Notes: generated by a model from the letters alone, not told the origin. A DNA stretch of 64,000 nt from Acidobacteriota bacterium (GCA_018001935.1 JAGNHB010000018.1:14286-78285), one strand, 5' to 3'; positions 3,937-60,600 are shown, counted from the first letter of the stretch. Program-made: numbers and translations.

Positions 3937-6843
<2,907 letters not shown>

Positions 6844-15406: not shown

Positions 15407-15437
15407 CGAACGCTATTTGCAATGCTGCCGACCGCTC

Positions 15438-43949: not shown

Positions 43950-44300
43950 CTTCGCGATCTTGGCGCCTTGGCGAGAGCCGACCCGGATCTTGATCTCGTA
44001 AAGGCGCAAAGATCGCAAAGGAAGACTGCAAAAGGAAGGGAGAAGATCGAGGGTTGCGGGCTGTAGTCGACAAGGGGGCCGCCGATCCCGGTCGCGAGCG
44101 CGTCCCCGGTCGAGTGCGACAGCGCGTGCGAGTGCGGCTGCGACAGCGCATGCGATTGCGATTGCGATTGCGATTGCGACGGCGATTGCGACGGCGATTG
44201 CGATACCGATAGCGATTGCGATACCGACCCCGATACCGATACCGACCTCGATGGGAACCCCTCCGGACCTACAGCCTACAGCCTATAGCCTACAGCCTAA
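43950..44300. repeat. composite repeat element: GCAAAG block, long GCGAYWGCGA/GATACC hexamer array, CTCGATGGGAACCCCTCCGGACC linker, CCTACAG x4
   Basis: read directly; lies immediately downstream of the 44312 gene. Confidence 0.9.
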
Positions 44301-44311
44301 CCCGGCGGCGG

Positions 44312-45715
44312 TCAGGCGGGGTCGAGTTCGGAGCAGAACGGGACCACCTTTCCGCCCGGTTGGTCGTCACCGAGGCGCTCGTCGATGCGGACGGTGATCC
44401 TGACCCCCTTCCCGAAAAGCGCCCGGAGCCGCTTCGCGATGGCGGCGGGGTCCAGGGGGCAGCCCGGGGCGGGGCGGAGGGCGAGGGTGCACGACCCGTC
44501 GCGGTGCTGCACGAACGCGTGCTGCAGGACGATCCACTCCCGGATGACCCGGCCGATGTCCACCGGCCCCACCCGGCTGCCGTCCGCCGCGCGGAACGTC
44601 ACCGGGGCCCGGGCCTGGAGGTCCAGCAGGCGCGGGACGGGGTCGGCCCCCGGCGGGTCGCTCCAGGAGAGGCGGGCGACGTCGCCGGTCCGGTAACGGA
44701 GCAGTGGGAGGTAGGGGTTTCGCCCGCCGGTGACGCTGATCTCGCCCGGTTCACCCTCGGGGACGGGTCGGCCGTCCGCGTCCACGATCTCGACGTAGAG
44801 GTCGGCGGGCAGGAGGGTGAAACCGGGGGCGTCGGGGGCGGCGTAGCCGATGACGCCGGTCTCCGTAGTGGCGTAGGTGTCGATCACCGGACAGCCGTAC
44901 GCGTCCTCCAGTCGCCGCTTCAGGCCGGAATCCAGGGCGACCGCCGAGCTGATCATGGCGGCGGGCTTCACCGGGATTTCCCAGGCCAGCAACCGGGCGT
45001 ATCCCAACGGGTCGCCCGTCAGGAAGAGGGGCGCAAGGTCCGCGAGGAAACGGCGGGCCGCCGCGGGGGTCCAGGCATGCGGGTGCAGGTTGACCTTGGC
45101 GAAGGCGGCGTTGCCCCATACCGCGAAGACGGTGGCAAAGACGACCGTGGTTCGGTGGGCGCTGAGGTTGACGCAGGCCGTGACCGTCTCGTCGAAGGAA
45201 AGCCGGACGCCGTGGCGTTCCAGCACGAATTCCAGGAAGGCGTGGTTCGTCGCCATGGTGACGGGGTGGTGGGGGACGTAGAGGGCGTGGCCGGTCACCC
45301 CCGAGGTCTCGTAGGTGATGAGGCGGGAAAGGTCGGCGTCGCGGGGAACGATCCGCTCGAGGCGGGCGGCGAGGTCCGCACGGCGCATCGTGGGTACCCG
45401 GGCCCAGTCGCGGGCCAGATTCAGCCCTTTCGGCAGCGCGTCCGCGAACCAGGGCGAGCGGCGGCGCATCGCCCGCGCCCAGGCGCGGATCGCGGCCGGG
45501 GGGCGGCCGTCGCCGGGGCGGCGGCCTTCCCGGATCGACCGGCGCACGACGTCCACGGCGGGGAGGTCTCCCGGGAGCAGCCGGTCGCCGGTGGCGAAGT
45601 TCCACGCCGGGGCGTCGGGGTGCTGGAGAATCCCCCGGAGCCGCTCCCAGGCCCCGACCGTGATCAGGGGGTTTCGCTCTCTCTGCTCAGCGGGGATGAA
45701 CTGTTCCGTCTCCAT
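44312..45715 (-). CDS. phenylacetate-CoA ligase-like adenylate-forming enzyme (PaaK/CapK/F390-synthetase family)
   Basis: adenylation-domain core YETSGVTG (AMP-binding TSGTTG-like); other conserved segments match the family only loosely; ATG at 45715. Confidence 0.7.
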   Translation of the reverse strand: METEQFIPAEQRERNPLITVGAWERLRGILQHPDAPAWNFATGDRLLPGDLPAVDVVRRSIREGRRPGDGRPPAAIRAWARAMRRRSPWFADALPKGLNLARDWARVPTMRRADLAARLERIVPRDADLSRLITYETSGVTGHALYVPHHPVTMATNHAFLEFVLERHGVRLSFDETVTACVNLSAHRTTVVFATVFAVWGNAAFAKVNLHPHAWTPAAARRFLADLAPLFLTGDPLGYARLLAWEIPVKPAAMISSAVALDSGLKRRLEDAYGCPVIDTYATTETGVIGYAAPDAPGFTLLPADLYVEIVDADGRPVPEGEPGEISVTGGRNPYLPLLRYRTGDVARLSWSDPPGADPVPRLLDLQARAPVTFRAADGSRVGPVDIGRVIREWIVLQHAFVQHRDGSCTLALRPAPGCPLDPAAIAKRLRALFGKGVRITVRIDERLGDDQPGGKVVPFCSELDPA

Positions 45716-45789
45716 GCCTTGCCTCGCTATCCCAACCCGGATGAACCGGAAAAGCACCACGGATGAATACGGATCACGCGGACTCACCA

Positions 45790-45900
45790 GAAAAAAACAG
45801 GCGATCTCAACCTCTCGCGAAGGCGCAAAGCCGCCAAGCCTCGCAAAGTCGGAACCGGGAAAAGAGGGACCTTTGCGAAGCTTTGCGTCTTCGCGCCTTT
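45790..45900. repeat. GCGCAAAG-type inverted repeats
   Basis: gaaggcgcaaagccgccaagcctcgcaaagtc ... cctttgcgaagctttgcgtcttcgcgcctttgcg. Confidence 0.7.
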
Positions 45901-45954
45901 GCGTGAAACCGAGGAAACGATCCTCGTCCAGGGTTGTTCAGAGACCAATCGCCT

Positions 45955-46539
45955 CTACCAGTCGCTCGCGGCCCGGGCGGCGGCTTCCCGGGCCTTCTCC
46001 GCCCGGAGGCGTTCCCGCAGTTCCCGCGCCCGCTCCTGCTGGGCCCGGGTGGCTTCGATGAGCTGCGCCCGGCGGACGCTGTCGAGGGTGGCGAGGCGGT
46101 CCGCCGCCTGCTCCATCGTCTCGCCCGGCGGTTCGATCCCCAGCGACCGCAGGCAGAGGCGAACCAGCTCCTCCCGACGGTCCGGGTCCCCGACGAAGGC
46201 GTCGGCGTTGACCACGGTCGCCAGTTCCCTCAGGCGATCGTCGAGGAAGGCCTGGACGCGGGCGGGCGGGGGCGGTGGCTGCCGGAGGCTCTCGTCCGCC
46301 AGGAGCCAGCAGCCGACCAGCACCAGCCGGAGCCAGTCGCGGTCGCCCTTGCCAGGCCCCGTGAAGGCGCGGAGTTCCAGTTCGGAGAGTGACACGCCCG
46401 CCAGGTCGAGGACCAGGTCGTGCACCACGGCGTCCACCCGGACGGCGCCCTTCCCCCGCAGGCAGGGCTCCGCCAGGAAGTCCGGGGGGCACTCGCTCAG
46501 TCGGTGCATCAGGCGGTCCAGGGACATCTCAGGAAGCAT
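45955..46539 (-). CDS. hypothetical protein with C-terminal coiled coil
   Basis: ATG at 46539 (MLPEMSLDRLMHRLSE); no family recognised. Confidence 0.45.
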   Translation of the reverse strand: MLPEMSLDRLMHRLSECPPDFLAEPCLRGKGAVRVDAVVHDLVLDLAGVSLSELELRAFTGPGKGDRDWLRLVLVGCWLLADESLRQPPPPPARVQAFLDDRLRELATVVNADAFVGDPDRREELVRLCLRSLGIEPPGETMEQAADRLATLDSVRRAQLIEATRAQQERARELRERLRAEKAREAAARAASDW

Positions 46540-46559
46540 GCCAACCTCACTCGGAGTAT

Positions 46560-47030
46560 AAACCAAGAACCACACGAAACAGCGACCACGAAACACTTGA
46601 AAACGGAACCGCAAACCGCACGAAAGAGAACCGCCCCTTGTTTGTCGGGAAGGCGGACCGAATTCCCGCGAAGAAACAGGACAGGCCGGAAATCAACCGC
46701 TCGAGGGCGTTCTGGTTTTCCGGGAAAGGACGAAAGGACTTAAAGGACCAAAACGACCCAAAGGACAGGGTGGGCGGCCACTTTTTCTCCGCGGTCCGGT
46801 TCGGGGATCCCGCACCGTGATCCGTTTCTTCTCATCGCTCCCCTTCATCCCCTTCATCCCCTTCATCCCATTCATCCCATTCATCCCATTTATCCCATTT
46901 ATCCCATTCATCCCATCATTCCCATTCTCCCCACTCTCTGCTTTCTTCTCTCTTTTTCTTTGCTTTCTTTGCTCTCTTTGCTTTCTTTGCGGTTTCTGCT
47001 CTCTTTGTGGCTTCCCCCGGTTTCGCGCCC
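46560..47030. repeat. composite repeat region: CACGAAC block, AAAGGAC x5, CCCATTCAT 9-mer x10, CTTTGCTTT array
   Basis: read directly. Confidence 0.9.
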
Positions 47031-47031
47031 G

Positions 47032-48807
47032 TCACTTCCTGTAAAGTCGGCGGGCGAAGGCGCGGGCGAAGTCCACCATTTCCTCCTGGGTGTTGACGAA
47101 GTGGACGTTCCAGCCCTGCTCCCGGAGTCGTTGAACCTCGGGCGATGCGTAAGACTCCGGCATGTGCAGCACGAAGGTGCCGCCCCCCCTCGCCGCCGCC
47201 AGGGCCCGGGCGGCGACCCCCCAGCCGTCCGGTGCGTCCTCCAGCATGTGGAAGATGTCGTGGTCGGACACCACCATGACGTGGACGGGATTGCGGGGGG
47301 GCGGCCCTTTCAGGAACGCATCCTCCAGCCGGAGGACCCCGAAGGCGTAGCCGGTGCCGAGGTAGTTGACCAGGACCTCCAGGACTTCCGCCGGGTTGCG
47401 GATGAACCCGCGGGTCTGGTGGAATTTTCCCGGTTCGCCGGAGAGGCACGCCATCACCCGCGCCCCGGCCCGCAGCGCCGACAGGGCCACGATGGCGCCC
47501 GCCAGGACCGGGTGGGAGAGATGCGCCGCCGGGTTGAGCATGGAGCCCGAGCAGTCGATGCCGAGGTAGAGGTCGGTGGGGACCCGGGCGGGCTCGGGGC
47601 CCTCCACCGCCCCGTGGAGCCGCCGGACCGTGGTCACGCCGGGGATCACCACCGGACTGCGGACGGCCGTCTCCACCCAGTCGATCTCCTGGGGGCTTCG
47701 GCCCGTGTCCCACACGTCCACGCCCTCGGGTTGGGGTTCCATGGATTTCCCGAGGACCTTGACGGGAAAGCGGATCAGGTGGGGAATGGCCCGCTCCCGG
47801 TAGTAGCGGGCGACCAGGTCCTGCTCGGGAACGTCCACCCCGAGGCCCCGCATCAGCGCGGTGTACGCCTCGGGGTCGCGGTACGTCTTCACCCCGCCCA
47901 CGGTCTCCTTCCCGTCACCCGCCACGGGCGCCTTCTCGGGGGCCGCCGCCTCCCCCGTCACCAGCGGGTCCTCGGCGGGGTGGACGGCGGCCTCCTCGTC
48001 CGCCTCGATCTCGGCCAGGCCGTCGGGGACCTCGATCCCGGCGCCCGCCTGCGCGGTGTCGAGCCAGATCATCCGCCCCCGGCCCAGGCCTTCCTGCTCC
48101 GGTATCTCCAGAAAGTAGGGGAGCAGCAGCGCGGCGAAGCGGCCAGCGCCCTTGAGCCAGTCCTTCGCGTAGACGCGGACGACCCGGGCCCCGAGGCCGG
48201 CGTCCACCTCCAGGGCGGGGTCGGGCGGCCCCGCCGCCGCCAGCGTCCCGCCCGGCAGGGCCCACAGGACCTCGTAGATCCGCATGTAGAGGCGCCACAG
48301 CCGGTCGTCTTCCCTCGTTTTGCCCCTGAGCGCCCGGTAGACGGCGGCCATGTCGAGGCCGGCGCCGCGCTGGAGACGGTCGTTGACCAGGAGGTCGGCG
48401 TAGAGGTTGGCCGCCAGTCCCGCGAAGGCCTCGCGGGTGGGGAGGCCCGCGCGCATGCGGGCCAGGAGGCGGCCGTTGTCGGCCAGGTCGGCGGGGCACA
48501 GGGCGTGGTGCCCCGCCTCGTGGGCCAGGATGGCGGTGGCCAGGGCGTGGTGACCGGCTTCGTGGGCCGGGATGGCGGGGTCGCGCTGGTCCAGTCCCAG
48601 TTCCTGGATTTTCCGGAGGTTGATCACCACGGTGTGGTCGAGGAGCCGGATCATGGCGATGGAATCGTAGATCCCCTCGTCCTCCTCCCTCAGGCGCCAC
48701 GTGGGCGGCCTCAGGCGCAGGAAGGGGCTCCAGGCCGCCAGGGCCGCCGGCCAGCACGCCTCCCACCCGGCCTGCAGGGAAGCGAGCGCGGCGTCCTTCG
48801 CCCTCAC
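47032..48807 (-). CDS. vWA (MIDAS) domain protein with N-terminal HExxH metallopeptidase-like motif (DUF2201-like architecture)
   Basis: MIDAS DLYLGIDCSGSM; duplicated HEAGHHAL; GTG start at 48807 overlaps the upstream stop (GTGA); alternative ATG at 48654. Confidence 0.7.
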   Translation of the reverse strand: MRAKDAALASLQAGWEACWPAALAAWSPFLRLRPPTWRLREEDEGIYDSIAMIRLLDHTVVINLRKIQELGLDQRDPAIPAHEAGHHALATAILAHEAGHHALCPADLADNGRLLARMRAGLPTREAFAGLAANLYADLLVNDRLQRGAGLDMAAVYRALRGKTREDDRLWRLYMRIYEVLWALPGGTLAAAGPPDPALEVDAGLGARVVRVYAKDWLKGAGRFAALLLPYFLEIPEQEGLGRGRMIWLDTAQAGAGIEVPDGLAEIEADEEAAVHPAEDPLVTGEAAAPEKAPVAGDGKETVGGVKTYRDPEAYTALMRGLGVDVPEQDLVARYYRERAIPHLIRFPVKVLGKSMEPQPEGVDVWDTGRSPQEIDWVETAVRSPVVIPGVTTVRRLHGAVEGPEPARVPTDLYLGIDCSGSMLNPAAHLSHPVLAGAIVALSALRAGARVMACLSGEPGKFHQTRGFIRNPAEVLEVLVNYLGTGYAFGVLRLEDAFLKGPPPRNPVHVMVVSDHDIFHMLEDAPDGWGVAARALAAARGGGTFVLHMPESYASPEVQRLREQGWNVHFVNTQEEMVDFARAFARRLYRK

Positions 48808-49823
48808 GCCGGCACCGCCGCCAGGAGCCACACGACGTGGCTCCGTTCCAGGGCCACCGCCAGGGTCTCGCCGTCGGCGGCGGCGGTGCCGGCGCCGGAC
48901 AGCTCGGGGACGCACGCTTCCAGGCCCCGGAAGCGCACCCGGCCCCCGGGCTGAAGGTGGGCCGCCACCGCCGTCCCGGACGGCCGGGGCGGGACCGGGT
49001 CGTCCGCCCGGGTGAGGGTGCAGCCGAAGTGGTCGGCGTGGATTTCCCGGACCGTTTCGCCGTCGGTGGCCAGGAGGCGGCGGCCGTCCGCGGCCACCCA
49101 CGGCGGGCGGGCGAAGGGGCCGCCGAAGCCGCGAAAGGCGCCCGTTCGCGCCATGACCCGGAGGGCCAGGCTTTCGGCGGGCCCCGGTCGGCGAGGGTCG
49201 TACCACCGGCTGATGCACAGGCCCTCCAGCGCCCGGCGCACCCCGGCCTCGTCCACGCCGGGGGTCCCCAGGACCGCGGCCTGCAGCGGCGGGGGGAGCG
49301 TCCGGCACACCGCCAGGGCCGACGGGCGATAGTGGGCGAGACCGACGGTCCAGGCCAGGACCTGCCCCGCCGCCAGCAGTTCGCCGGGGTTGCGGGCCAG
49401 GGGGGAAACCCCGGCCAGGGCCGCCGTCCAGCGCTCCAACGCCGGTCGCCCGTGTTCAGCCACCGCCAGGGCGCCGTTGAAGACCGCCGCCAGGACCTGC
49501 CGCGGGGCCGCCGCCAGGTGGGGCAGGAGCCGGGGCAGGGCCGTCTCCCAGGCCCGGGCGGGGAGGGGCGAGACGGCCCGGGGACCGAGCAGCCGCAGGG
49601 CGAAGAGGTCGAGGGAGACGTCGCAGAGGGCGTGGACCAGCGCGTCCAGGTTGGGGAGACCCCCGCCGGCGGCCGCCGACACCAGGCGGTCCACCGGGCC
49701 GCGGAGGTGCTCCAGGTACTCCCCGGCGTCGAGTCCGGGCCAACGCTCCCGGGCCTCGGCGAAGCGTGCATTGAAGGCGTCGCGGTCCCGGGCGAGGACG
49801 TTTTGGAAGACGGGGTGGATCAC
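48804..49823 (-). CDS. hypothetical protein encoded between the AAA+ and vWA genes (candidate vWA-MoxR-associated component)
   Basis: GTG start at 49823 overlaps the AAA+ stop (GTGA), and the stop overlaps the vWA start; mostly alpha-helical, Ala/Leu-rich. Confidence 0.55.
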   Translation of the reverse strand: MIHPVFQNVLARDRDAFNARFAEARERWPGLDAGEYLEHLRGPVDRLVSAAAGGGLPNLDALVHALCDVSLDLFALRLLGPRAVSPLPARAWETALPRLLPHLAAAPRQVLAAVFNGALAVAEHGRPALERWTAALAGVSPLARNPGELLAAGQVLAWTVGLAHYRPSALAVCRTLPPPLQAAVLGTPGVDEAGVRRALEGLCISRWYDPRRPGPAESLALRVMARTGAFRGFGGPFARPPWVAADGRRLLATDGETVREIHADHFGCTLTRADDPVPPRPSGTAVAAHLQPGGRVRFRGLEACVPELSGAGTAAADGETLAVALERSHVVWLLAAVPA

Positions 49824-51409
49824 GGCTTCCACTTCAGCCAGCGCAGGTAGTTGGTGTAGCGCTGGTGGAGGTACTTCAGCTTCAGGATCCGGTCGTACAT
49901 GTGGCCGTAGAGCTTGCGGGAGGCGCTCCACTCCCGGAGCACCTTCTCCACCTTCGCCAGGCGCCTGCGCACGTCGCCCTCGGCGACCCCCACGAGGCCG
50001 CTGCCGAACTCCTCCTCCAGCGGGGTCAGCGGGTCCGCGCGGTCGAGGTCGAGGCGGTCGTACTCCTTGCACGCGGCGTCGAAAAGGCTGCGGATCCAGC
50101 TCACGCGGTCGGTCCGGAGGGCGGCGTTGCGGCCCTGCTCGAAGAAGGGGCTCTCGGGGTTGGGCACCAGTTTGTCCTGGAGGACGAAGGGGAGGACCTG
50201 CCGGACGTCCTCGAAGTCGACGCTGGGTCTCCCCCGGAACCAGGCCGCGGCCTTGACGTAGGCCAGGGCCGTCATGAGGGCGCGCACCGAGAGGCCGTTC
50301 AAGGTCTGGCCGCCCAGGTCCACGGCGCGGTCGCGGCCGGTCTCCCCGGCGGCGAGGGCGACGAGGTCGGCGCCGGCGAGCTTGACGGTGTCCTTGGTCA
50401 TGTACTCCACCTGGTGGGCGGCGGGCTCGAAGAACTCGAAGTGCCCCGCGAAGAACTCCAGACGCTTCAGGAGCGGGGCGGGGAAGCCCACGGCGCGGAC
50501 CTGGGCCTCCGCGGCGTCCAGCTCGGTCTCGGTGAAGACGAGGCGGGACGGGACCACCTCCTCGGGGCGGACGTTCTCCTCGAGGCGCGTCAGCAGCTCC
50601 CCGAGGAAACGGGTGTTGAAGTGGAGGGCCCGGACCACCACGTCGATACGGTCGCGCAGGGCCTCGATCACCTGGTAGGTCCCGCCGCCGGCGTCGTCGT
50701 TGGCCGTGAGGTACCAGGCCGCCTCGGGGCACTCGAAGACCTGGTCGTACATCTCGGCGTAGTTGTCCGCCATGACGGTGAGGAGGGCGGACTGGGTGCG
50801 GGTGGGGATGCGGTTGTACTCGTCGATGATCTTGATGCGCATCCCGAGCCACTTCCGCCAGGCGATGCGGATGTCCTCGTTGCTGGCGGCGCTCACCATG
50901 GAGCTGGGGAGGGGGTTGCCCAGGAGGTCCGCCACGGTCATCTGGGGCTGGCCGTGCTGGATGGCCCGCCGGATCTCCCGCAACGAGTAGCCCGACAGGA
51001 CGCCCATGAGGATGGCGATGGCGGTTTTCCCCCGCCCGGGGCCGCCCACCAGCAGGCAGCGGCGCCGCACCGCCAGGGTGAGGAGGGGCAGCAGCACGAA
51101 ACTGGAGTAGCTCTGGTCGCTCGGAAGCCGAACGGTGACCTTCGCGTCGCCGAACTCGTAGGAGAGGGGCGGCGTGTCGTTGTACTCGATATCGTAGTGG
51201 GGGCTGATGATGGCGTGGTTGGTGACCCAGAAGTACACCTGGCGGAACTTCTCGTCCAGCGGCACCGCGCCGGGCTCCGCGGCGCGGCCGTCGTCCACGG
51301 GGCCCTGGTAGAGGTCCGCCACGTCGAAGCGGGGCCGCCCCGCCGCCGGCGACGCCGGGTGCGTGGGCGCCTCGGAGACCTTCTCGTAGTCGCGCTTGAA
51401 AAACCCCAT
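49820..51409 (-). CDS. MoxR-like AAA+ ATPase with long N- and C-terminal extensions
   Basis: Walker A GGPGRGKT, Walker B/sensor IIDEYNRIPTRTQSALLTVMAD (MoxR signature); GGAGGG RBS before ATG at 51409. Confidence 0.8.
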   Translation of the reverse strand: MGFFKRDYEKVSEAPTHPASPAAGRPRFDVADLYQGPVDDGRAAEPGAVPLDEKFRQVYFWVTNHAIISPHYDIEYNDTPPLSYEFGDAKVTVRLPSDQSYSSFVLLPLLTLAVRRRCLLVGGPGRGKTAIAILMGVLSGYSLREIRRAIQHGQPQMTVADLLGNPLPSSMVSAASNEDIRIAWRKWLGMRIKIIDEYNRIPTRTQSALLTVMADNYAEMYDQVFECPEAAWYLTANDDAGGGTYQVIEALRDRIDVVVRALHFNTRFLGELLTRLEENVRPEEVVPSRLVFTETELDAAEAQVRAVGFPAPLLKRLEFFAGHFEFFEPAAHQVEYMTKDTVKLAGADLVALAAGETGRDRAVDLGGQTLNGLSVRALMTALAYVKAAAWFRGRPSVDFEDVRQVLPFVLQDKLVPNPESPFFEQGRNAALRTDRVSWIRSLFDAACKEYDRLDLDRADPLTPLEEEFGSGLVGVAEGDVRRRLAKVEKVLREWSASRKLYGHMYDRILKLKYLHQRYTNYLRWLKWKP

Positions 51410-51499
51410 GGGGCCCTCCGTCTTTTTCGATGTTCCGCGGACACCATCGAACGACCGTCATTCGTCGCTCACCGGTGCTTCCTTCGGGGTTGGTTTCGC

Positions 51500-51830
51500 T
51501 GTCACCGGCGGTTTCGAGGCGAAAGGACGAAAGGACCAAAAGGACCCAAAGGACCAAAAGGACCGCGACAAGCCGGTGCCGGATGCAACGAGACCGTAAC
51601 CGGCATTGCCATCGCTGTGGGTATCGCTGTCGCCGTCGTCGCTGTCGCCGTCGTCGCAGCCTCCGATCCCGTCTCCCTCATCGTCAGCCCCTGGCCGTCC
51701 TTTGCGTCCCTTTGGTCCCTTTGGTCCTTTCGTCCTTTGATTCCGACCTCGATCCCGATTGCGACAGCGACCCCGATCCCAACCCCGATGGAAAATCCGA
51801 AAAGAACCGGTGTACGTCCCGAAACATAGG
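51500..51830. repeat. composite repeat element: AAAGGAC array, GC-rich hexamer block, inverted GTCCTTT array, GATYCCGA hexamers, CCCCGATGGAAAATCCG linker
   Basis: read directly upstream of the AAA+ gene. Confidence 0.85.
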
Positions 51831-52115
51831 GCGAATCCGCCGGGATGTCAACGCGAAAACGGGTCGTAACCCATTCCGGACAGGGGAGGTCGGAACCACG
51901 GACCACACGCAAGAGAAAGGTTGTTCTGCCTGTTCTCTGTCCGTGAAGTTTTGCCGAGGCACGAGTGAGGATTATCCTAATTTGTGGCTCGAAATACGGT
52001 GGGCATCGCGATACAATGAATCTTGAAGAAAAATGGGGAGGATGTTCGGGCTGCGAAACAAAGAGGGACCACTTTCTTTCGGTCGGAGAAGTTTGAACCG
52101 CACGAGGTGAAGTTC

Positions 52116-52415
52116 ATGTTGGAGATTGACAAGATCAAACCAGAGATCGCCGCCCTCTGCAAGCGCTTGTATGTCAGGCGCCTGGAACTTTTCGGCTCGG
52201 CGGTTACGAAGGAGTTCGGTCCGGGGAGCGATGTGGACTTTCTTGTCGAATTCGACCGGGGAAAGGGGGATCTCTTCAACTGGTTTTTTGAGTTGAAAGA
52301 GGAGCTGGAGAGACTGGTATCAAGGCCGGTGGATGTCATCGTCACAGACGCGATCCGGGATTCTTTCTTCAGGAAAGTGATAGAGCAAACCCGGACGTTG
52401 CTGTATGCCGCTTGA
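52116..52415 (+). CDS. minimal nucleotidyltransferase (MNT) antitoxin
   Basis: LELFGSAVTKEFGPGSDVDFLVEF nucleotidyltransferase-fold motif (GS...DxD); ORF may begin at 52023. Confidence 0.7.
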   Translation: MLEIDKIKPEIAALCKRLYVRRLELFGSAVTKEFGPGSDVDFLVEFDRGKGDLFNWFFELKEELERLVSRPVDVIVTDAIRDSFFRKVIEQTRTLLYAA

Positions 52416-52617
52416 GATCAAGAAAACTCTTTTTGACATCGTGGCTCCCTCTTTGTTTTCAAGGATTACAAACGCCCAGCGGATTGCAGGCTTCCGCAAT
52501 ATTATCGCCCACGGATACGATGCGGTCGATGAAGCCATTGTCTGGGAGGCGGCTACCGTCCACTTGCCAATTCTGAAGGCGGAAATCGAGCACTGGATGG
52601 AGGCTGACGAGAGGTGA
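52405..52617 (+). CDS. HepT-like (DUF86) toxin, apparently short or N-terminally truncated
   Basis: Rx4HxY motif RNIIAHGYD; only 70 codons versus about 115-140 typical. Confidence 0.5.
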   Translation: MPLEIKKTLFDIVAPSLFSRITNAQRIAGFRNIIAHGYDAVDEAIVWEAATVHLPILKAEIEHWMEADER

Positions 52618-52865
52618 ACCTGATGCAGGAATTCGAGGTGGCGGTGGAGAAGGGGGAGGACGGCAGCTACCGCGCGTCCGTTCCCGGTCTGCCGGGCTGC
52701 GAAGCCCGGGCGAAGAACCTGGAGCAGTTGATGCCCCGGGTGCGCCAGGCTGTCCTGTCCCGGCTCGCGGAGGAAGGCGGCGGGCCCGGCGCCGGGGACG
52801 AGCTCGTGTTGCGGGTGTCCATCTCGCTGCCCGCGCCCTGGGCCCCCTTCCCGCGCGAGTGCTGA
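52614..52865 (+). CDS. HicB-family antitoxin-like protein (no HicA found)
   Basis: EFEVAVEKGEDGSYRASVPGLPGCEARAKNLEQL matches the HicB N-terminal consensus. Confidence 0.6.
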   Translation: MNLMQEFEVAVEKGEDGSYRASVPGLPGCEARAKNLEQLMPRVRQAVLSRLAEEGGGPGAGDELVLRVSISLPAPWAPFPREC

Positions 52866-52910
52866 GACGTTCGCCGCGGGGGCGGCCATCCGGCAGGTCG
52901 GAAACCAGCC

Positions 52911-52940
52911 GAAGCCGCGCGCGTAAGCAAGCGGTTAAAG
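52911..52940 (+). promoter_or_regulatory. copy of the GCCGCGCGCGTAAGCAAGCGGTTAAAG motif, 30-60 nt upstream of the 52970 start
   Basis: about 26/30 identity with 37012-37042. Confidence 0.45.
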
Positions 52941-52969
52941 ATCTGTTATTTACCACTTGGAGGTGCGTA

Positions 52970-54199
52970 ATGGTGAGACGGAGCGTGTTCCGCGTTTCGG
53001 CGGTCGGCGTGTGCCTGCTGCTGGCCGTCCTGGCCGCGACCCCGTGCCCGGCCCAGAAAAAGGCCGCCACGGCCCCGCCAAAGCCGGCCCCCGCCGCGCA
53101 GAAAGCGACCCCGGCCGCGGCCCCGGAGAAGATCGTGCCGTGTCCGCCCGACTTTGTGCTGGAAAAAGAACTCCCCGGCGAGGACCCCTTCTGGGTCTAC
53201 CGGCCCACCTTCTCGCCGGACGGCCTCACCGCCGCCGGTTTCCTCCACTCCAGCCACAAGATCCTGATCTGGGACCTCAAGACGGCGAAGGTGATCAAGG
53301 AGTACGACGAGTCGGTCCACGGCATGCCGGCCCTGGACGGGTTTGAGTACACCGCGGACGGCAAGATGCTGATCCTGATCTACCGGGACCTCCCGCTGAA
53401 GTTCCTGGACCTCGCCGCGGGGAAGGTGGTCCGCACCCTGCCCACCGCGGCGGACCCCAAGAAGGTCTACGACTACGCCTTCAGCCCGGACATGAAGCTC
53501 CTGGCCTTCGGGACCACCACCGGCATCAAGCTGTGGGACCTGGAGAAGGGCGCCCAGATCGCCACGTACCTCGACGGGAAGACCGTCAGCGGCCTGGACA
53601 TCGTCTACTACAAGACGAAGGAGGGCAAGCTCGTCCGACTCATGGCCTACGGGCTGTTCCTGGGGAAAGGGGCCGAGTTCCGCGACGTGGCGGGGATCAT
53701 CGATCTCGACACCGGGGCGGTGAAGCCGGTCCTCAACGACGTTCCGAAGGAGAAGGTGAAACTGGGCGACATGACCCTCTTCTGGGTCTCCTTCGAGCAC
53801 GGCGGCGGCTACCTGATGGTGGGCTACTCGGTCTTCCCGCCCCAGGTGACCGCGGGCGTCTACCTGGTGGGGACGGCCACCGGCAAGTACCTGGCCGACC
53901 ACGCCCTGGAGCAGTACATCCTGATGTACGACGCCTGCTACCTCTGGAAGCCCTTCTACGGCTATCTGGTCTGCACCAGGAACATGAAAGTGGACCCCTA
54001 CAAGGTGAGCACGGAGTTCCTGGTGATCACGAAGACGGACGGGCTCACGGCCATCGACTGCACCCGCGAGGACAAGCTGGCGGTGCAGTCCGTCACCGTC
54101 GCCCGGGACCAGTCCCGGGCGCTGATCGCCACCAAGGCCTCCCAGGCGGCCCCCAGCAAGGTGTACCTGTACCGCCTGGTGCCCAAGACGCCGAAGTAG
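52970..54199 (+). CDS. secreted WD40/beta-propeller-like protein
   Basis: signal peptide MVRRSVFRVSAVGVCLLLAVLAATPCPA; repeated LxxWDL/FSPD blade-like motifs; GGAGG RBS. Confidence 0.65.
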   Translation: MVRRSVFRVSAVGVCLLLAVLAATPCPAQKKAATAPPKPAPAAQKATPAAAPEKIVPCPPDFVLEKELPGEDPFWVYRPTFSPDGLTAAGFLHSSHKILIWDLKTAKVIKEYDESVHGMPALDGFEYTADGKMLILIYRDLPLKFLDLAAGKVVRTLPTAADPKKVYDYAFSPDMKLLAFGTTTGIKLWDLEKGAQIATYLDGKTVSGLDIVYYKTKEGKLVRLMAYGLFLGKGAEFRDVAGIIDLDTGAVKPVLNDVPKEKVKLGDMTLFWVSFEHGGGYLMVGYSVFPPQVTAGVYLVGTATGKYLADHALEQYILMYDACYLWKPFYGYLVCTRNMKVDPYKVSTEFLVITKTDGLTAIDCTREDKLAVQSVTVARDQSRALIATKASQAAPSKVYLYRLVPKTPK

Positions 54200-54213
54200 T
54201 GGCGCAAGCCAAA

Positions 54214-54240
54214 GTGGTGGCGCAAGCTTCAGCTTGCGCG
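54214..54240 (+). terminator. hairpin gcgcaagc-ttca-gcttgcgc after the 54199 gene (no T-tract)
   Basis: perfect 8-bp stem; between convergent genes. Confidence 0.35.
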
Positions 54241-54494
54241 GGAACTCAATCGGCGGCTCTCTGTCTCCGGAAGGCCTTTCCCGGCCGCTGCCGCCCAGAT
54301 CGGACCGATCGGTCGGATCCGACGGATCGGTCCGATGCTGCCCCTCCCCGTCCTCGGCCGTTCAGGCTCCGGCGGCGTGCGGGTCCTTCGCAACCCGGGC
54401 CGTCTGGGGCCGACCGCGCCGCTCCGCGGACTGCGCGGCGCGGGGAAAGCGGCGCTCCGGCAACCTGCGCACCGCACTCCGCAGCGGAGACGGC

Positions 54495-54650
54495 GGCGGC
54501 GATCCCGATTGCGACAGCGATCCCGATTACGACAGCGAGAGCGATTGCGATACCGATACCGATACCGATGGGAACCCCTCCGGACCTACAGCCTACAGCC
54601 TTCAGCCTTCAGCCTTCAGCCTAAACCCCTTCAGCCTATCCCCTACCTTC
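54495..54650. repeat. composite repeat element: GATCCCGATTGCGACAGC hexamer array, CCGATGGGAACCCCTCCGGACC linker, CCTACAG/CCTTCAG heptamers
   Basis: read directly; the giant gene's TAG stop lies in the terminal ccctacc. Confidence 0.9.
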
Positions 54651-57600
54651 CCGGCGGTGCGGCCTCCTTCACCACGGCGCCGTCGGTGTCGCTGAGGACG
54701 AGAATGGCGAAGCGGTCCGTGCGGTCCAGGTCGTCGGTGCTCAGCGAGGCGTAGTCGAAGCGCCCGCGCAGGTCGGTGTAGCCGTCCTTGTAGAAGTTGA
54801 CGGAGCCGTCCTTCCACCGGGCGTACACCTTCACGTAGGCCTTGGACACGGGCCGGCCGCCGGCCTCGCGGGTCACCTTGACCTGCCCGAAGGCCTCCAC
54901 CACCTGCACGGTGAGCGCGCCGCCGTGGCAGGGGGTGGTCCGGGTCACGCCGCCGCCCTCGGCCGAGACCACCACGTCGGCGTTCTGCAGGCCGGGCGGG
55001 AGGTCCACCACGGTCCGGGTCGCCCCCGGCGCCGGCTTGACCACACGTGTCTCCTTTGCCCTCACGACCGCGGCCTGCCCGGCGGTGGCCCCCCCGAACG
55101 GGTCGCGGGAGAAGAGCACCTCGGCGTCCGTGGGGTGGAAGCCCAGGCGGATCTCCGGCACGTTGCGGTGCTCCAGGACGATCTTCCGCCCCTCCACCTT
55201 CAATTCCAGCGAGGGTTCCGTGGACGCCAGCGCCTCCTGCCGGCGGTTGCGGTCGTTGCGGTCGGGGGCCGCCGCACCCGCGCGCCCCTCCATCTCGTCC
55301 AGCTGTGCCAGGACGTCGCCGAAGCGTTCGGCCCAGCGCTTGACGGGGTGGCTTTTGTAGCCCTGCGCCAGGGCCCGGGCCGTGGCGGGCGTGTCGGTGA
55401 AGAAGGCCAGCCAGGCGGCGCAGTAGTCGTACTGGAGCCGGGTGGCGAGCTTGCCCGCATCCACCTTGGCGAAGAGGTCCCGCCCCTCGGGGATGCGGTC
55501 CTGCAGGAGCAGGTAGTAAGCCGCCTCGAGCCGGTCGGCGTCGGTCAGTGTGGGCCTGAAGGCCAGCAGGTTCAGGAAGGCCTGGTACTGGGCCGACAGG
55601 CGGTCGTTGGGGATGGTCCGCTGCTTCCCGAAGGTGTGGGCGCGGGCGTTGACCAGGGGCTCGTACTCCAGGTGCCGGTAGGCGCCGATCGCGGCGGGGT
55701 CGAGATCCAGGAGCGGGCTCTGGAGGAAGGGCCCCAACCGGTCCCGGAAGTCGGGGCGGTGGAGGAGGAATTCCCGGATGGCGGGCACGTCCTTGTGGCG
55801 GACGCCGTAGGAAAAGAGGTCGGCGTCGTAGACGTGGCGCCGGGTCAGGACGTCTAGGGCGGCCCGGTAGAAGGCCGCGTCCTTCACCCGCCAGGCGATC
55901 CGGCCGAGGCGGACCCCGTTGAGGTTCTCTTCGCCCAGGTAGCGCAGGACATCCTCGGGCGGCGCGTCCTGGGAGATGTAGGACCAGGAGGTTTTATCGA
56001 TGACGCTGGGCGTCTCCACCACATGCAGGGGCTTCGCCTCGCAGGCGGCCAGGGGGACGCCGCCCGCCGAGACCTGGGCCGGGTAGTGGGCGAACTCCCC
56101 GGGCTTCGGGAAGTAGAAGAAGTACATGAGCTGCCTCGTGGCGTAGGGGTCCAGCAGGACCGGGACGCTTCGGGTGACCCTGCCGGCGCTGACGGGGACC
56201 GCTCCCCGCGGCACCTGGAGCAGCACGTCCAGGCGCTTGCGCAGCCCGCCCGGGTTGGTCAGGACCACGCGGCAGCCGTAGACCACCCGCGGCAGGAACT
56301 CGCCCTCCACGTACTTCTCCTGGGGCTCGCCGTTGATCATGACGGTGTCCTCATCGGGGCGGAAGAAGCGCTGGGTGGCCAGGATGGAGGCCCCCGCGGG
56401 CTTGCTCTCCCCGGCTTCCCGGATTTCCCGCACCACGGCCAGGGCGGGACTCGCCGCCTTGAGGGTGAAGGCGGTCCCCTCCGCTTTCGTCTCGGGTTTT
56501 TCGGCCTTGAAGGGGACGTCCAGGACCGCCAGGGCGGCCAGGGTCTCGGTCAGGCTCCCCGGCGCCTCCAGGACGTGGGGCGAGCGGAAGCCGTCGCCGC
56601 CCTCGTGGAGGACGAAGTCGAGCCAGAAGCGGTTCGGGCGGACCCGCCCGGGGGACTCGGCCGCGGGGGCGAGCCGGTAGTAGTCGCTCTCGGCCAGTTC
56701 CCTGGTCCGCTCCACCTGGCGGAAGGCGGCCGGGGCGTCCATGCGCCGGGCCTTCATGGCGGCGGGCGCCGGGCGGGGCGCGGACGGCTGCATGGCGGCC
56801 TTCTCCTTCTTGGCGAAATAGCCGTCTCTAGAGCTTTCATCCGCCTCTTCACTCGCCAAGGGCGCGGACGACGCGACCGTGATCTGGTCCGCGGAGATGC
56901 CGGCCTCCGGCATGCCAGAAATCTGGTCCTCCGCGGCTTCACGTGCCTCCTCGAGCCCCAGCCGGTCGCCGGCGTCGAGGCCCTCGATGCCCAGGGCCGT
57001 GTCGAAGCGGAGGACCAGTTCGTCCACGGAGGGAGGGTTCGACTCGAGGTGTTTTCGAATCCAGTCCGCCACCGCCTTGCGCTCCTCGGGGACGCGCACC
57101 GCCAGGAACGCCTTCTCCAGGGTGTTGAGCCGTTCGAAGGCGAAGGGTCGCCGGTACGCGGCCAGGTCCTCCTCCAGCAGGAACTTGTCGATGAAGGTCT
57201 TGGTGAGCTTGTTCTTCAGGTAGGGGCGCACCACCCGGTCGAACCAGGGGCGGTCCTTGAAGTAGAGGAAGAGGTGCAGCTCGTGGGAGGCGCAACGGCC
57301 GTAGGCCTCCGCCCGCTCGGCTTCGCTCATCTTGTCCCAGCGCGGGAGGAAGGCGAACTCGCCGAGGGCGCCGTCGGGGCTGACGGCGGAGAAAAGCCGG
57401 TAGGCCCGGTCGAGGTCGTCCACCAGGACCAGTTTGGCGCTGGTGAGGTCGGCGATGGCGACGGACTCGCCCGCGGCGAGGGGCCGGACCGCCTTCTGCT
57501 CCGTGAAGCGCTTCGCGGGGTCGAGCCCCTCGGCGAGGCACAGGTCGCGGAAGGCGGCGGGCGTCTCGGGAAAGGGGAAGACCCGGCAGGCGGACCGTCG

Positions 57601-60600
57601 CTCGTCGACGGCCAGGACCCGCACCAGTTGGGCGTCTCCCAGGTCCTTGCGGGGGACGGTCACCACACCGTTGGCGTCGGGCCGGAGGTTCGCCAGGAAG
57701 ACGCCGGGGTTGCGGAGGAACTCCAGGGATTCGTAGCCCCCCGGAAGGGCCACGGAGAGCTTGGTTCCCGCATCGCCCCGGGATGCGCCGGCCCATCCTC
57801 CCGCAGCGCCCGCGCCGTACCCTTCGCCGGCCATGCCCGCCTGGACGCCCGTCTCGGTCTTCTCCACCGCCCAGGGGTTGAGGAGGAGCCCCGGCCGGGG
57901 GAGCGTGTTCCCCGGCAGGCGAGGCGCGCGCTGCCGTTCCAGGATGTAGCGCATCTCGTCGTCCAGGGCGCGCCCGCCGGTGTAGTCCGAAAGGGGGACG
58001 CCCACCAGGGCCGACGCCGGGCCCGGGAAGGCGAAGGGCGTCAGGTCGGCGAACAGGTCGTGGTCGGGGAGGAATCGCGAGGCGGCGACGTGCACGCGCG
58101 TCCCGGCCGTCCAGTTCGCCAGCTGGATGCGGACGGCCTCGGCGCCCGCGTCCAGGCGGATCACCTGGAGCGGCTCGGGCGTGGCGGCGTCCCACCGCCG
58201 GTCGCCGTCGCGCAAGCGGCCTTCCGCGCCTTCGGGCGGGGCCAGCCGCACGCCGATCACCCGGCCATCGTCGGGAAGGTACAGTTCGTAGGCGCCCGCC
58301 GGGAGGTCCTTGAGGACGAGGAAGCCGTCCTCCCGGCCGAGGGCGGCGGAGCGGTCGTGCAGGGCCACCCCGCGGTCCCCTCGCTCCAGGAGGAAGGGCG
58401 GCGGGCCGTCCGCCGCCGCGCCGGGGATGCGCACGGGCGCCCCGGCGGGGCGGACGACGGGGGACTCCAGGAGGTAGCGGTCCGTGGGGAGCGTCCAGGA
58501 GCGCTGGACGGGTTCCGCCTGGGCCTGGACGGCCGTGACGCCCGGGAGCTTCCCGAGCCGGACGCGCCCGTTCGCGTCGGTCCGCAGCAGGAAGTCCAGC
58601 GTTTCCTTGAAGTCCCGGTGGGTCAGCTGCACCATCACGGCCCGGCCGACCCGCGCTTCGCCGGACTTCCCGAGAAGGTCAACGGCGTAACCGCCCTCGG
58701 CGAGGGAGAGGAAGAGCGCCTCGGTGGCGTCGGTGGCGTCGATGCCGTTGAGGGGGAAGCTCGCCGTGCTGGAAAGGTCCCGGGGCTCCCCGCCCTGGGC
58801 GGGCCTCACCTTCGCCTTCAGCGTGAAGGTGATGGACGTCAGCCGCTCGGGGACCTGGAAGGCGTAGACCGGCTCGAGTTCCCCCTTGAGCGCAAAGTTG
58901 GGGACCTCCCGGACCGATTGGGCGCGGTCCAGGTCCCCGGTGGCGACGACCAGGACCGGGGACTCCAGACAGTCGAGCCCGATCGGTTTGCCGTTGATCG
59001 TGAGGACCGGCCGGACGGCCACGGTGGCCGTCTTCCCGGCCAGGAGCGCCTCCCGCTCCACGTGGAAGCCGGCGTCCAAGCGGTAGTTCTCGGCGAGGTG
59101 GTCCAGGGTGCCCAGGGAGACGGACTCCCCGGCCAGGAAGGCGACGTTTTTCGTCCCGGGCCGCTCGGAGTAGGGGAGGACGATCGTCCCGTCCGCCGCG
59201 GAACGGTAGAGGCGGTTTTCCATCCACAGGCCGGCGTCCTTCACGATACGGCCCGACTCGTCCAGGACCGTGACGTGCTGGCCGTCAGCGGCAGGTTCCG
59301 TCAGGGCGGTCAGGCGCCCCTTCTGGACCAGGGCGCGCACGCTGCGGCCGTTCCCGATGAAGTCCACCACGTACAGGCCCCGCCCGGACAGCTCGGGGAA
59401 GTCGTAGGACCGGACCACCCGCCGCACCGGCGGTTCCTCGTAGGTGAAGGAGCGCTCGGCGGTGGGGAGGATCCCCTCCAGGTCGGCGTTCCGCTCGAAG
59501 GCGGCCGCGGTGCCCGCCCGGCGGAAGGCCAGCAGGTCGACGGCGTAGACCTTGACCAGGAGGGTCTTGATGTTCTTGACGGCGAGGGAGAGCTTCACCG
59601 GGTCGGCGGCGCCGAAGGTCCGCGGGTTGACGGGGAGGAACTCCAGGTCCACCCGTTCCTTCAGGGCGTCGGCCACCACGGGGGTCAGAACGGCGGTCAG
59701 GCGCTGGGGGTCCCCCTTGCCGGCCAGGAGCCGGGTCTCGGCCCAGAGTTTCTGAAGGTACCCGCTCTCGATGAACTCCGCGAACTCGGCGGGCGTGTCG
59801 GCGTCCTCGAGAAACCGGGCCAGGTAGTCGCGGACCAGGGGCTCGTCGTCGCCCGCGCCCAGCAGGGCGAGCTGGCTCCCCCACGAGGAGTTCATGTCGC
59901 CCAGCGACTGGCGTCCGCCGGACTTGGCCCGGAAGTCGGGGTTGACGTAGCCGGCGGCCTTCGGCAGGCGCAGGTAGGCCAGGAAACGGGCCCGGTCGTA
60001 GGTGCCCCGGGTCCGGTCCTCGAGGAGGCGGTGGTAGAGGACGAGGGCTTTCAACCCGTCGAAGGCGGGGGCCAGGCGTTCAGCGAAAGCTTGAAGACGC
60101 TCGAGATACGCCATGCGCTCCGCGGGGGAGGCCTCCAGCTGGGCGGCGCCGTCCCGCGGGCGCAGGCGGACGAGGCAGGCGCCCACGTAGTTGGTGTTCC
60201 GGAGCAGGGCGGGCCGGAGTGCGGCCAGTTCGTCCAGCTGCTCCTGTGTCAGTTGACGGTGGACCATGTAGTCGCCGAAGCCGCGCTCGGGGTGGGCGTC
60301 CAGGTCCTCGGCGACCCAGCGGGCCAGGTCGGGGAGGATGGGGAGTTGAAGCCGCTTGAGGATCTCGTGCTTGAGGCGGGCGTCCGGGTTCAGGGCCGCC
60401 AGGCGGGGCAGGGCCGAGTCGTTGAAGCGGGAGAGCCCGGGGTCCTGCGCGAGGTACTTCGCCGCCAGTTTCCCGAAGTCCAGGGCGTCCGGGGCGAGGG
60501 TGGACGGCGTGGTGTCGGCCCCGGCCGCGTTCTCGCGCTCGTGGTCGAAGCGCAGGCCCAGCTCGTCCTTCAACCGGGTCAGGGATTTCTCCGGGTCGGC

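Follow-up and report, generated by a model that had tools for sequence, protein, structure and literature searches.

A five-gene operon encoding a MoxR-type ATPase, an HExxH-vWA protein, two new protein families and an adenylate-forming enzyme, with recurrent NAD-salvage neighbours

The five-gene operon and its products

Five genes on the minus strand of a contig from an Acidobacteriota bacterium (GCA_018001935.1, JAGNHB010000018.1, positions 14286-78285) form an operon at positions 44312-51409 of this stretch of 64,000 nucleotides, which has a G+C content of about 70% and is called the window below. The first gene, G1 (49820-51409), encodes a divergent MoxR-clade AAA+ ATPase of 529 amino acids. 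It is followed by G2 (48804-49823, GTG start), whose 339 amino acid product represents a new protein family, and by G3 (47032-48807, GTG start), whose 591 amino acid product carries an N-terminal domain with an HExxH motif, a linker and a vWA domain. The last two genes are G4 (45955-46539), encoding a 194 amino acid member of a new all-helical family, and G5 (44312-45715), encoding a PaaK-like adenylate-forming (ANL) enzyme of 467 amino acids. A preliminary description of this sequence had recognised G1, G2 and G3 as minus-strand genes chained by GTGA start/stop overlaps, and the predicted open reading frames (ORFs) indeed overlap in this manner at 49820-49823 (G1/G2) and 48804-48807 (G2/G3). 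However, these three genes had been taken as the complete unit, whereas the conserved unit comprises five genes and includes the ANL ligase.

There are 27 distinct loci in the comparison set on which this conclusion is based, and they represent at least 10 phyla; a scan of genome contigs gave at least 18 loci. The order G1 to G5 is conserved. G3 is present in all 27 loci, G5 in 25, G1 and G2 in 24 each and G4 in 22, and neighbouring genes mostly overlap by 1-14 nucleotides. For example, Thiorhodovibrio, Anaeromyxobacter, a Kiritimatiellae metagenome-assembled genome (MAG) and a Thermodesulfobacteriota MAG all encode G1, G2, G3, a protein of about 195 amino acids that has no Pfam match, and an AMP-binding enzyme. 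The products of G1, G2 and G3 in the window are identical to gene calls of an Acidobacteria MAG (P0001, P0121), and two independent Logan assemblies reproduce the locus over 7.1 kb and 5.9 kb without a single mismatch. We consider the anatomy of the operon to be secure: it encodes a MoxR-vWA pair in which the vWA member is an HExxH-vWA adaptor, together with representatives of two new families and one ANL enzyme, arranged as an accessory unit that is repeatedly linked to salvage of nicotinamide adenine dinucleotide (NAD).

The MoxR signature noted previously for G1 is borne out by the Pfam models AAA_3 (32.4 bits versus a gathering threshold of 27, E-value 9.6e-8) and AAA_lid_2 (34.7 versus 22.7 bits, 1.5e-8). 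The margins over both thresholds are small, and we therefore regard G1 as a divergent member of the MoxR clade. Its Walker A motif GGPGRGKT is encoded at 51023-51046 and its Walker B motif IIDEYNR at 50810-50830, both on the minus strand, and further motifs are TANDDxGGGTY, EALRDRID and NGLSVRA. The two Walker motifs, the arginine-finger box EALRDRID and the sensor 2 motif NGLSVRA are invariant or nearly so among 17 G1 sequences, whose alignment has a mean column identity of 67%. Three parts of the protein are specific to this family, namely an N-terminal domain of about 117 amino acids, an insert of about 115 amino acids that separates the AAA core from the lid, and a C-terminal domain of about 109 amino acids that finishes in an amphipathic helix (LKLKYLHQRYTNYLRWLKWK). 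Extensions of roughly 110 residues at the N-terminus and 200 at the C-terminus had been proposed, and the lengths given here correct these estimates.

The only meaningful relative of G1 among solved structures is the MoxR-like protein 2r44 (E-value 1.7e-4). A slightly stronger match to Pumilio (6e-5) has no significant aligned stretch and was treated as chance. There are also weak matches to the BchD/cobaltochelatase models of NCBIfam, and a scan of G1 against PADLOC-DB 2.0 gave only matches at the level of the P-loop (E-values of 0.004-0.08).

In 24 loci, the vWA partner of this ATPase is encoded two genes downstream as G3. The N-terminal domain of G3 covers approximately residues 1-245 (48073-48807), followed by a linker at residues 250-310 and the vWA domain at residues 345-591 (47035-47775). 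The metal-ion-dependent adhesion site (MIDAS) motif DCSGSM lies at 47539-47556. None of 54 sequences deviates at the MIDAS residues D418, S420, S422, T465 and D515/D517, or at the motif A-H-E-x-G-H-H and residue E179 of the N-terminal domain. An AlphaFold2 model (mean predicted local distance difference test score, pLDDT, of 82) consists of a helical N-terminal domain with a small sheet and an alpha/beta C-terminal domain. The latter has the Rossmann-like alpha/beta fold of vWA domains and is closest in fold to NorD. The acidic and proline-rich linker is modelled with low confidence (residues 251-267 and 290-308 have pLDDT values under 50), and we assume that it resembles a linker that precedes the vWA domain of BchD. 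The earlier description of a MoxR ATPase paired with a vWA/MIDAS protein whose N-terminal domain bears an HExxH motif is correct.

The further proposal that G3 has a DUF2201_N-plus-vWA architecture is not upheld by Pfam, since neither model reaches its threshold in this protein. None of 20 G3 family members matches a VWA model at threshold (the best match is to VWA_2, with an E-value of 0.0082), and neither the window protein nor 19 homologues match PF13203 (DUF2201_N). When N-terminal domains are searched alone, there is one sub-threshold match to DUF2201_N in a distant actinobacterial protein (L020; E-value 0.089, 12.8 bits versus 23.2), and three distant members have sub-threshold matches to Peptidase_M48 (E-values of 0.0026-0.054). 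Overall, G3 matches no Pfam, NCBIfam or PADLOC model. On the basis of its sequence motif, we describe the N-terminal domain as zincin-like.

The window copy of G3 carries its HEAGHH motif twice, which had been reported together with the MIDAS motif, and both features are present. However, the duplication is not a property of the family. It results from a 42-bp tandem duplication of 2.4 copies, detected by Tandem Repeats Finder at 48481-48580 on the minus strand. The first copy of the motif (48547-48564) is located in a loop, and the second (48505-48522) aligns with the invariant motif of the family. The resulting insertion of 14 amino acids is absent from all 53 aligned homologues, including P0002/P0003, which are 81% identical to the window protein. 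Two independent Logan assemblies carry the duplication with 0 mismatches, and we reject an assembly artefact on this basis. The duplication is lineage-specific and real in the window population. Residues 36-50 or so of the window protein read PTWRLREEDEGIYDSIAM, where the family consensus is PRWCLTxxxEKxExLxxSFAM, such that a nearly invariant cysteine and phenylalanine have been lost. This divergence and the duplication indicate that G3 may be drifting in this lineage. A different variation on G3 is found in P0362 (1114 amino acids), wherein an N-terminal region of about 440 amino acids is fused to a G3-type protein and contains a KxNG motif (YHKYNGFLG) reminiscent of the nucleotidyltransferases of RNA and DNA ligases.

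The middle protein, G2, had been described as having no recognisable family, and it has no match to Pfam at an E-value of 1 or lower and none to NCBIfam or PADLOC. It is nevertheless a genuine coding gene, because it is conserved across phyla with the invariant motifs GAFRGFGG.F..PP and AGQ..AW..GLAHYR. Its AlphaFold2 model is of high confidence (pLDDT of 94, predicted template modelling score of 0.91), and it predicts a repeat-like N-terminal domain of 12 helices (residues 1-205) followed by a domain of 11 beta strands (residues 219-338) that resembles approximately three blades of a beta-propeller. A diverged G2 protein was recovered in Microbacterium by hhalign with a probability of 96.6%. 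There is also a natural fusion of G2 and G3 in P0292 (927 amino acids), which matches G2 over residues 11-307 (BLASTP E-value 1e-27) and G3 over residues 349-924. Sequence and profile searches of the Protein Data Bank (PDB) with G2, G3 and G4 returned only chance-level matches or designed helical proteins.

There are 332 homologues of G4 (P0213 in the window), and the family likewise matches no Pfam, NCBIfam or PADLOC model. These proteins are composed of a globular N-terminal part with the motifs DPDRREEL and PxGE, a helix of about 45 amino acids that is rich in glutamate, arginine, lysine and alanine, and a conserved C-terminus. The C-terminal residue is glutamate in 116 of 120 homologues, and in 100 of the 120 it is preceded by arginine, so that a typical protein ends in [W/Y]xRE-COOH. 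The other four end in (E/D)W, and the window copy (ASDW) is among them. A homologue from Microbacterium, which was recovered by hhalign with a probability of 99%, ends in YSSE.

G5 exceeds the Pfam threshold for AMP-binding enzymes (42.7 bits versus 29.9, E-value 4.2e-11) and contains the motifs TSGVTG, TTETG, RYRTGD and GGK. The elements TSGxTG, TE, RYRTGD and GK are conserved in the family, including the region of the C-terminal catalytic lysine. The closest NCBIfam model is the DVU_1553 family, which is matched with 104 bits against a cutoff of 300, and the best relatives in the PDB are phenylacetate-CoA ligases (E-value 1e-7). G5 is thus related to PaaK and coenzyme F390 synthetase-like ANL enzymes, but it has an additional N-terminal region of about 100 amino acids and falls far below the equivalog cutoffs for PaaK (26.4 bits versus 646 for TIGR02155 and 34.2 versus 700 for NF041878). 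The window copies of G4 and G5 are 46% and 50% identical to their Thiorhodovibrio counterparts.

G4 and G5 are translationally coupled in many loci. In a Verrucomicrobia MAG (L008), a second and overlapping G4'-G5' pair (12955-15469) is located about 1 kb past the first G5, and its G4' protein ends in AAAKYNRE. This joint duplication argues that G4 and G5 act together.

Distribution and genomic neighbourhood

The operon is found in Acidobacteriota, Gammaproteobacteria, Myxococcota, Thermodesulfobacteriota, Kiritimatiellota, Planctomycetota, Verrucomicrobiota, Bacteroidota, Chloroflexota, Actinomycetota and others. Cultured carriers include Flavobacterium limicola DSM 15094, Microbacterium sp. 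Leaf159, Cellulosimicrobium cellulans and Thiorhodovibrio frisius. G1 proteins are 58-70% identical to the window protein in the 16 loci whose G3 is at least 38% identical, and 41-54% identical in the distant loci L020-L022. The corresponding ranges are 38-57% for G3, 30-56% for G5, 27-55% for G4 and 22-45% for G2. There are at least 1959 relatives of G3 at the 90% clustering level. Among 1.84 billion representatives they form 571 clusters at 50% identity, of which 152 have E-values of 1e-30 or lower, and the family is compact and well apart from generic vWA proteins.

Several genomes carry partial or decayed copies (L028, L003, L009 and L029). In a Myxococcales MAG (L028; 5400-6982 and 10155-10355), G1 is split into products of 334 and 203 amino acids and G4 is cut to 66 amino acids, and G5 is shortened to 225 amino acids in Anaeromyxobacter (L003, 13033-13710). 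An Acidobacteriota MAG (L026, 9890-10536) has an AF2212-like gene and two tiny ORFs between G3 and G4. We interpret the operon as horizontally spread, self-contained, and accessory rather than housekeeping.

There is also a distant three-gene relative without G4 or G5 (L022, 2963-11397), in which G1 is 42% and G3 is 26% identical to the window proteins. We do not regard it as a minimal version of the system, as its 286 amino acid middle gene product is not homologous to G2. Upstream of this locus are genes for a radical-SAM protein (matching the PADLOC viperin model pVip with an E-value of 4e-12) and a weak TIR_2-like protein, and downstream of it lies a divergent Hsp70 gene.

The most frequent neighbours of the operon are genes for PnuC and a NadR-like protein, which are adjacent to it in 12 of the 27 loci. 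All-versus-all clustering of the ORFs from these loci revealed no other shared family beyond G1-G5. The PnuC proteins exceed the cutoff of TIGR01528. The NadR-like proteins match TIGR01526 with E-values from 1e-45 to 1e-51, covering the nicotinamide mononucleotide (NMN) adenylyltransferase and ribosylnicotinamide kinase domains in full length; they lack a helix-turn-helix domain and score below the equivalog cutoff. The two genes are located upstream of G1 in the same direction in Flavobacterium limicola, Cellulosimicrobium, Microbacterium, a Propionibacteriaceae MAG, an Anaerolineae MAG and L012, whereas they are divergent upstream genes in Thiorhodovibrio and convergent in L009. In L011 and L013 they directly follow G5, and in the latter the last 4 nucleotides of G5 are shared with PnuC. 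A fused PnuC-NadR gene begins 1 nucleotide past G5 in L028. Only the NadR-like gene was detected in L008, where it directly follows the G4'-G5' pair at a distance of about 3 kb from the first G5. The link to PnuC-NadR nicotinamide riboside salvage is one of gene neighbourhood.

Other genes are occasionally embedded in the operon. In two Planctomycetes loci (L006, 5907-6929; L007, 5903-6916), a gene for a protein of 337-340 amino acids sits between G1 and G2, and its C-terminal part matches Nuc_deoxyrib_tr (7e-7) and the PADLOC model of a TIR effector (1e-12); the first 200 or so residues have no assigned domain. Another locus (L018, 5390-7777) has a gene for a 795 amino acid protein between G4 and G5, with matches to Isochorismatase, TCAD9 (PF19974, 'ternary complex associated domain 9', 2.9e-58) and a DSP-PTPase 'Swiss Army Knife' phosphatase. 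The TCAD9 match overlaps an APH-type kinase match, and this protein has no match in PADLOC. The PADLOC matches are confined to accessory genes, namely those of L006 and L007 (TIR effector) and L022 (pVip).

Divergently upstream of G1 in the window are genes for an MNT-type nucleotidyltransferase (52023-52412, plus strand; NTP_transf_2, 2.6e-13) and a fragment of a HicB-like antitoxin (52614-52862, plus strand; 1.1e-4). Toxin-antitoxin genes are also located immediately upstream of G1 in L005 (HepT/MNT and HicAB) and L026 (BrnTA). In Flavobacterium limicola DSM 15094 (L015), a tRNA gene (3491-3565) is located about 280 bp upstream of the seven-gene cluster formed by PnuC, NadR and G1-G5. Genes for tRNAs are a common landmark of the sites where islands insert.

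Possible functions of the operon

Our preferred interpretation is that the operon is an uncharacterised variant of the MoxR-vWA remodelling machines, accessory and linked to NAD, which would mount a regulated response to stress or conflict in which NAD is either spent or protected. We assign to this interpretation a probability of roughly 0.45. A role in conflict or defence had been suggested from the window alone, and we find it plausible, with indirect support: TIR/NDT-like or TCAD9 genes are embedded in three loci, toxin-antitoxin genes flank three loci and some copies are decayed. Against it stand the PnuC and NadR-like neighbours in 12 of the 27 loci, the lack of PADLOC matches for the core proteins and the lack of copies on plasmids, phages and viral contigs. 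We prefer a stress or conflict response over a metabolic function derived from nicotinamide riboside.

In this type of machine, the AAA+ hexamer of G1 may dock on the vWA domain of G3, pull on the flexible G3 linker and thereby gate the zincin-like N-terminal domain. In the NorQD system, the ATPase engages a finger and the C-terminus of its vWA partner and remodels the linker of that partner (PMC13036017), and by this analogy G1 would act on the linker of G3. G2 could be a structural partner that stabilises G3, as suggested by the natural fusion of these two proteins. G4 might offer its free C-terminal glutamate, carried on the end of a long charged helix, as a handle. Perhaps this glutamate is captured by the MIDAS metal of G3, or else it is adenylated by G5 and ligated to an amine. 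The output would be tied to NAD, given that PnuC and NadR-like genes are contiguous with the operon in roughly half of the genomes, often co-directional or overlapping, and that some versions embed a TIR/NDT-like gene of NAD-cleaving type. Beyond the anatomy of the operon, we infer the steps of this mechanism, including the parts played by the C-terminus of G4, the substrate of G5 and the zincin domain.

Several observations weigh against this interpretation. The core of the operon lacks a classical toxic effector, and none of its proteins is recognised by PADLOC-DB 2.0, in which G2-G5 have no matches at all. Identities across phyla of 58-70% for G1 and 39-57% for G3 are unusually high for a system engaged in an arms race. 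Searches with G3 of PLSDB plasmids, INPHARED phages and IMG/VR gave no relatives, so there is no sign of carriage on known mobile elements. There is no PnuC or NadR match in the 64-kb window, and neither gene is adjacent to the operon in 15 of the 27 loci. Fold searches with G3 returned vWA domains as all top matches and gave no confirmation of a zincin fold in the N-terminal domain, for which reason the term 'zincin-like' rests on the motif and the placement of helices. Finally, we know of no ANL enzymes that adenylate the C-termini of proteins.

A second possibility, which we judge rather unlikely, is that the operon encodes a housekeeping or metabolic chaperone. G1 and G3, with G2 and G4 as adaptors, would mature, re-activate or metallate G5, which would make a pyridine-, nicotinate- or nucleoside-derived metabolite from material supplied by PnuC and NadR. 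Parallels exist in NorQD for nitric oxide reductase, CbbQO for Rubisco and the BchID and CobST chelatases, and more generally in the MoxR-vWA maturation chaperones NorQ-NorD, CbbQ-CbbO and CoxD-CoxE, with which the operon shares a MoxR-vWA pair and a G3 fold nearest to NorD. This possibility is also favoured by the weak BchD/cobaltochelatase matches of G1, the acidic and proline-rich linker of G3, which may have a counterpart in BchD, the origin of G5 in a superfamily of metabolic enzymes, the very high sequence conservation and the lack of PADLOC matches. Moreover, conserved metabolic neighbours had been named beforehand as evidence that would count against a conflict system, and the PnuC and NadR-like genes in 12 of the 27 loci fit this description. 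In contrast, no nor, cbb, cox or bch/cob client genes are shared near the operon according to ORF clustering of the 27 loci, and no other biosynthetic genes are conserved around it. The operon also differs from NorQD-type systems in the invariant HExxH motif of G3, in the additional proteins G2, G4 and G5, and in the family-specific N-terminal, insert and C-terminal domains of G1. A pure chaperone would leave both the HExxH motif and the C-terminal glutamate of G4 unexplained. Furthermore, the operon occurs patchily, with partial or decayed copies in several genomes, and the embedded TIR-like and TCAD9-kinase/phosphatase genes are not metabolic.

A third possibility is a tagging cycle that resembles pupylation. 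The combination of a ligase, a peptidase, an AAA+ protein and a protein with a C-terminal glutamate has parallels in the Pup/PafA/Dop/Mpa system and the tyrosination cycle of tubulin. Here, G4 would be the modifier or the modified protein, G5 would adenylate its terminal glutamate and join it to a lysine or small amine, the zincin of G3 would trim or remove the modification, and G1-G3 would recognise and remodel the conjugates. The zincin might, for example, expose the glutamate in the 3% of G4 proteins that have an additional terminal tryptophan. Such a cycle could be nested within the other interpretations; in its own right we regard it as improbable. It would account for the ends of the G4 proteins (glutamate in 116 of 120 and (E/D)W in 4 of 120), for the coupling of G4 with G5 and their joint duplication in L008, and perhaps for P0362, which seems to fuse a different ligase-like N-terminal region to G3. 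The likeness to Pup-PafA-Dop-Mpa is one of analogy, in that the operon combines genes for a C-terminal-glutamate protein, a ligase that activates carboxylates, a hydrolase and an AAA+ ATPase. However, the two systems are not homologous. The ligase belongs to the ANL enzymes and is not glutamine-synthetase-like, and the ATPase is of the MoxR type. G4, at 194 amino acids, is helical, mostly folded and typically ends in [W/Y]xRE, whereas Pup is a small disordered tag that ends in GGQ or GGE. Genes for PafA/Dop or a proteasome were not seen in the eight loci labelled with Pfam, the 27 loci do not share any family of this kind, and neither a proteasome nor a target is evident. Activation of a protein C-terminus is not known for any ANL enzyme, and the glutamate of G4 could be a plain ligand of the MIDAS metal.

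A related proposal concerns the chemistry driven by G5. This enzyme might adenylate the G4 glutamate and join it to a lysine, or to an amine or hydroxyl derived from NAD or nicotinamide riboside, with the zincin reversing or maturing the product and the MoxR-vWA pair reading it through the MIDAS. We consider this chemistry doubtful. If true, it would establish a Pup-like or tubulin-tyrosination-like cycle that is tied to NAD homoeostasis and possibly to immunity.

The preliminary description had compared the genes to the ternary MoxR-vWA-VMAP conflict systems. Two motifs near the N-terminus, WxhapG and PsWRxa, have been described for the MoxR proteins of VMAP systems (Kaur et al. 2020, PMC7159879), whereas a regular-expression search found neither motif in the first 125 residues of 19 of 19 G1 proteins. 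G2 also has no VMAP match in Pfam, assuming that the Pfam copy used holds the VMAP models as it holds TCAD9. The operon resembles the VMAP, iSTAND, FtsH and beta-propeller systems in having a MoxR-vWA core with specific additional components, in the occasional embedded TIR/NDT-like and TCAD9 kinase and DSP phosphatase genes and, with respect to the beta-propeller ternary systems, in the partial propeller-like beta domain of G2. However, it has no VMAP, iSTAND or FtsH component and no hypervariable effectors, its core is highly conserved and its taxonomic spread is not centred on multicellular bacteria. A three-gene system of a MoxR protein, a VMAP-like protein and an HExxH-vWA protein, encoded by a mobile block bracketed by repeats and deploying its peptidase as the effector, is therefore very improbable: a MoxR-vWA pair with a third unknown protein does exist and L018 does embed TCAD9, but synteny defines a unit of five genes, G2 and G1 lack the expected VMAP features, one of the supposed brackets lies inside the operon and belongs to repeats found throughout the window, and the middle gene of the three-gene locus L022 is not homologous to G2.

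Comparable pairs of a MoxR ATPase and a metallopeptidase-vWA protein (DUF2201_N plus VWA-like) have the same two-protein architecture as G1 and G3, and one such pair is encoded by a jumbo phage (Iyer et al. 2021, PMC7824862). The present pair differs in that DUF2201_N is absent from 20 of 20 full-length G3 proteins, there are no relatives in the phage and viral collections searched, and the genes are part of a five-gene operon with an ANL enzyme. The Arc2 cluster of Pseudomonas aeruginosa (PA4317-23) also includes a predicted MoxR-like ATPase and a vWF-domain protein; its published description makes no link to the operon reported here, and we take it to be a different, Bat-like operon. The architecture of the actinobacterial Esr pathway differs as well. 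Thus, the operon is not a VMAP ternary system, not a DUF2201 pair as judged by Pfam, not a NorQD-type client chaperone and not a catalogued defence system. The combination of an extended MoxR protein, an unfamiliar protein and an HExxH-vWA protein had been called one without a name, and in agreement with this we found no description of the five-gene cluster in the literature. Among published architectures, the jumbo-phage pair (PMC7824862) and the ternary conflict systems (PMC7159879) come closest.

Few AAA+ machines are as common, or as poorly understood, as MoxR-vWA pairs, of which only a handful have a known client. With regard to our preferred interpretation of the operon as an NAD-linked remodelling machine, the likely partners are all encoded together: the new families G2 and G4, the latter a protein with a C-terminal glutamate, a vWA protein that is invisible to Pfam, and an adenylating enzyme. 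This set of five proteins makes the target and the action of a MoxR-vWA machine directly testable. In addition, the recurrent adjacency or fusion of PnuC and NadR genes, together with the TIR-like genes embedded in some copies, suggests that the motor has a hitherto unrecognised connection to NAD supply. The depletion and restoration of NAD are central to conflicts between phages and bacteria, which makes such a link topical.

Expression signals, repeats and flanking features

The only sigma-70-like promoter match upstream of G1 is located at 51823-51851 on the minus strand (TTGACA-17-TATGTT). It agrees with the consensus at 10 of 12 positions, which makes it a candidate by consensus match only, and it is part of the repeat-rich 5' region at 51410-51830. 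Rfam scans of window positions 44000-52600 revealed no riboswitch or other RNA, and scans of eight PnuC-containing loci revealed no RNA except for one tRNA. These results rule out an NAD riboswitch as the link between the operon and NAD salvage.

G3 and G4 overlap by 1-14 nucleotides in most other genomes, whereas in the window they are separated by a spacer of 492 bp (46540-47031). There is no promoter-like site within this spacer, and its one weak hairpin is no better than expected by chance. It is filled with short tandem repeats, including 10 copies of TCCCATTCA and four of TTTCTTTGC. These belong to a family of intergenic tandem repeats that recurs throughout the window at 826-1022, 6397-6761, 23542-23840, 31649-31804, 32590-32924, 44111-44299, 46839-47007, 51522-51777 and 54190-54638. 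The units include AAAGGACC and its complement, TGCGAT/CGATTGCGAT (also TGCGAT/CGATTG), CCTACAG/CCTTCAGCCTACAG and TCCCATTCA, and they are often arranged side by side and as inverted pairs (for example 51522-51564 versus 51697-51739). They look like a genome-wide mosaic intergenic element of this acidobacterium. It had been proposed that the repeats bracket G1-G3, but the block at 46560-47030 lies between G3 and G4 and its units recur in many intergenic regions; therefore, it is not a specific bracket, and we reject the repeats as the edges of a mobile cassette.

About 3 kb upstream of the operon is an ORF for a protein of 2157 amino acids (54646-61116, minus strand), which has no Pfam match at an E-value of 0.001 or lower. 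It adjoins the gene for a WD40-like protein of 446 amino acids (52859-54196).

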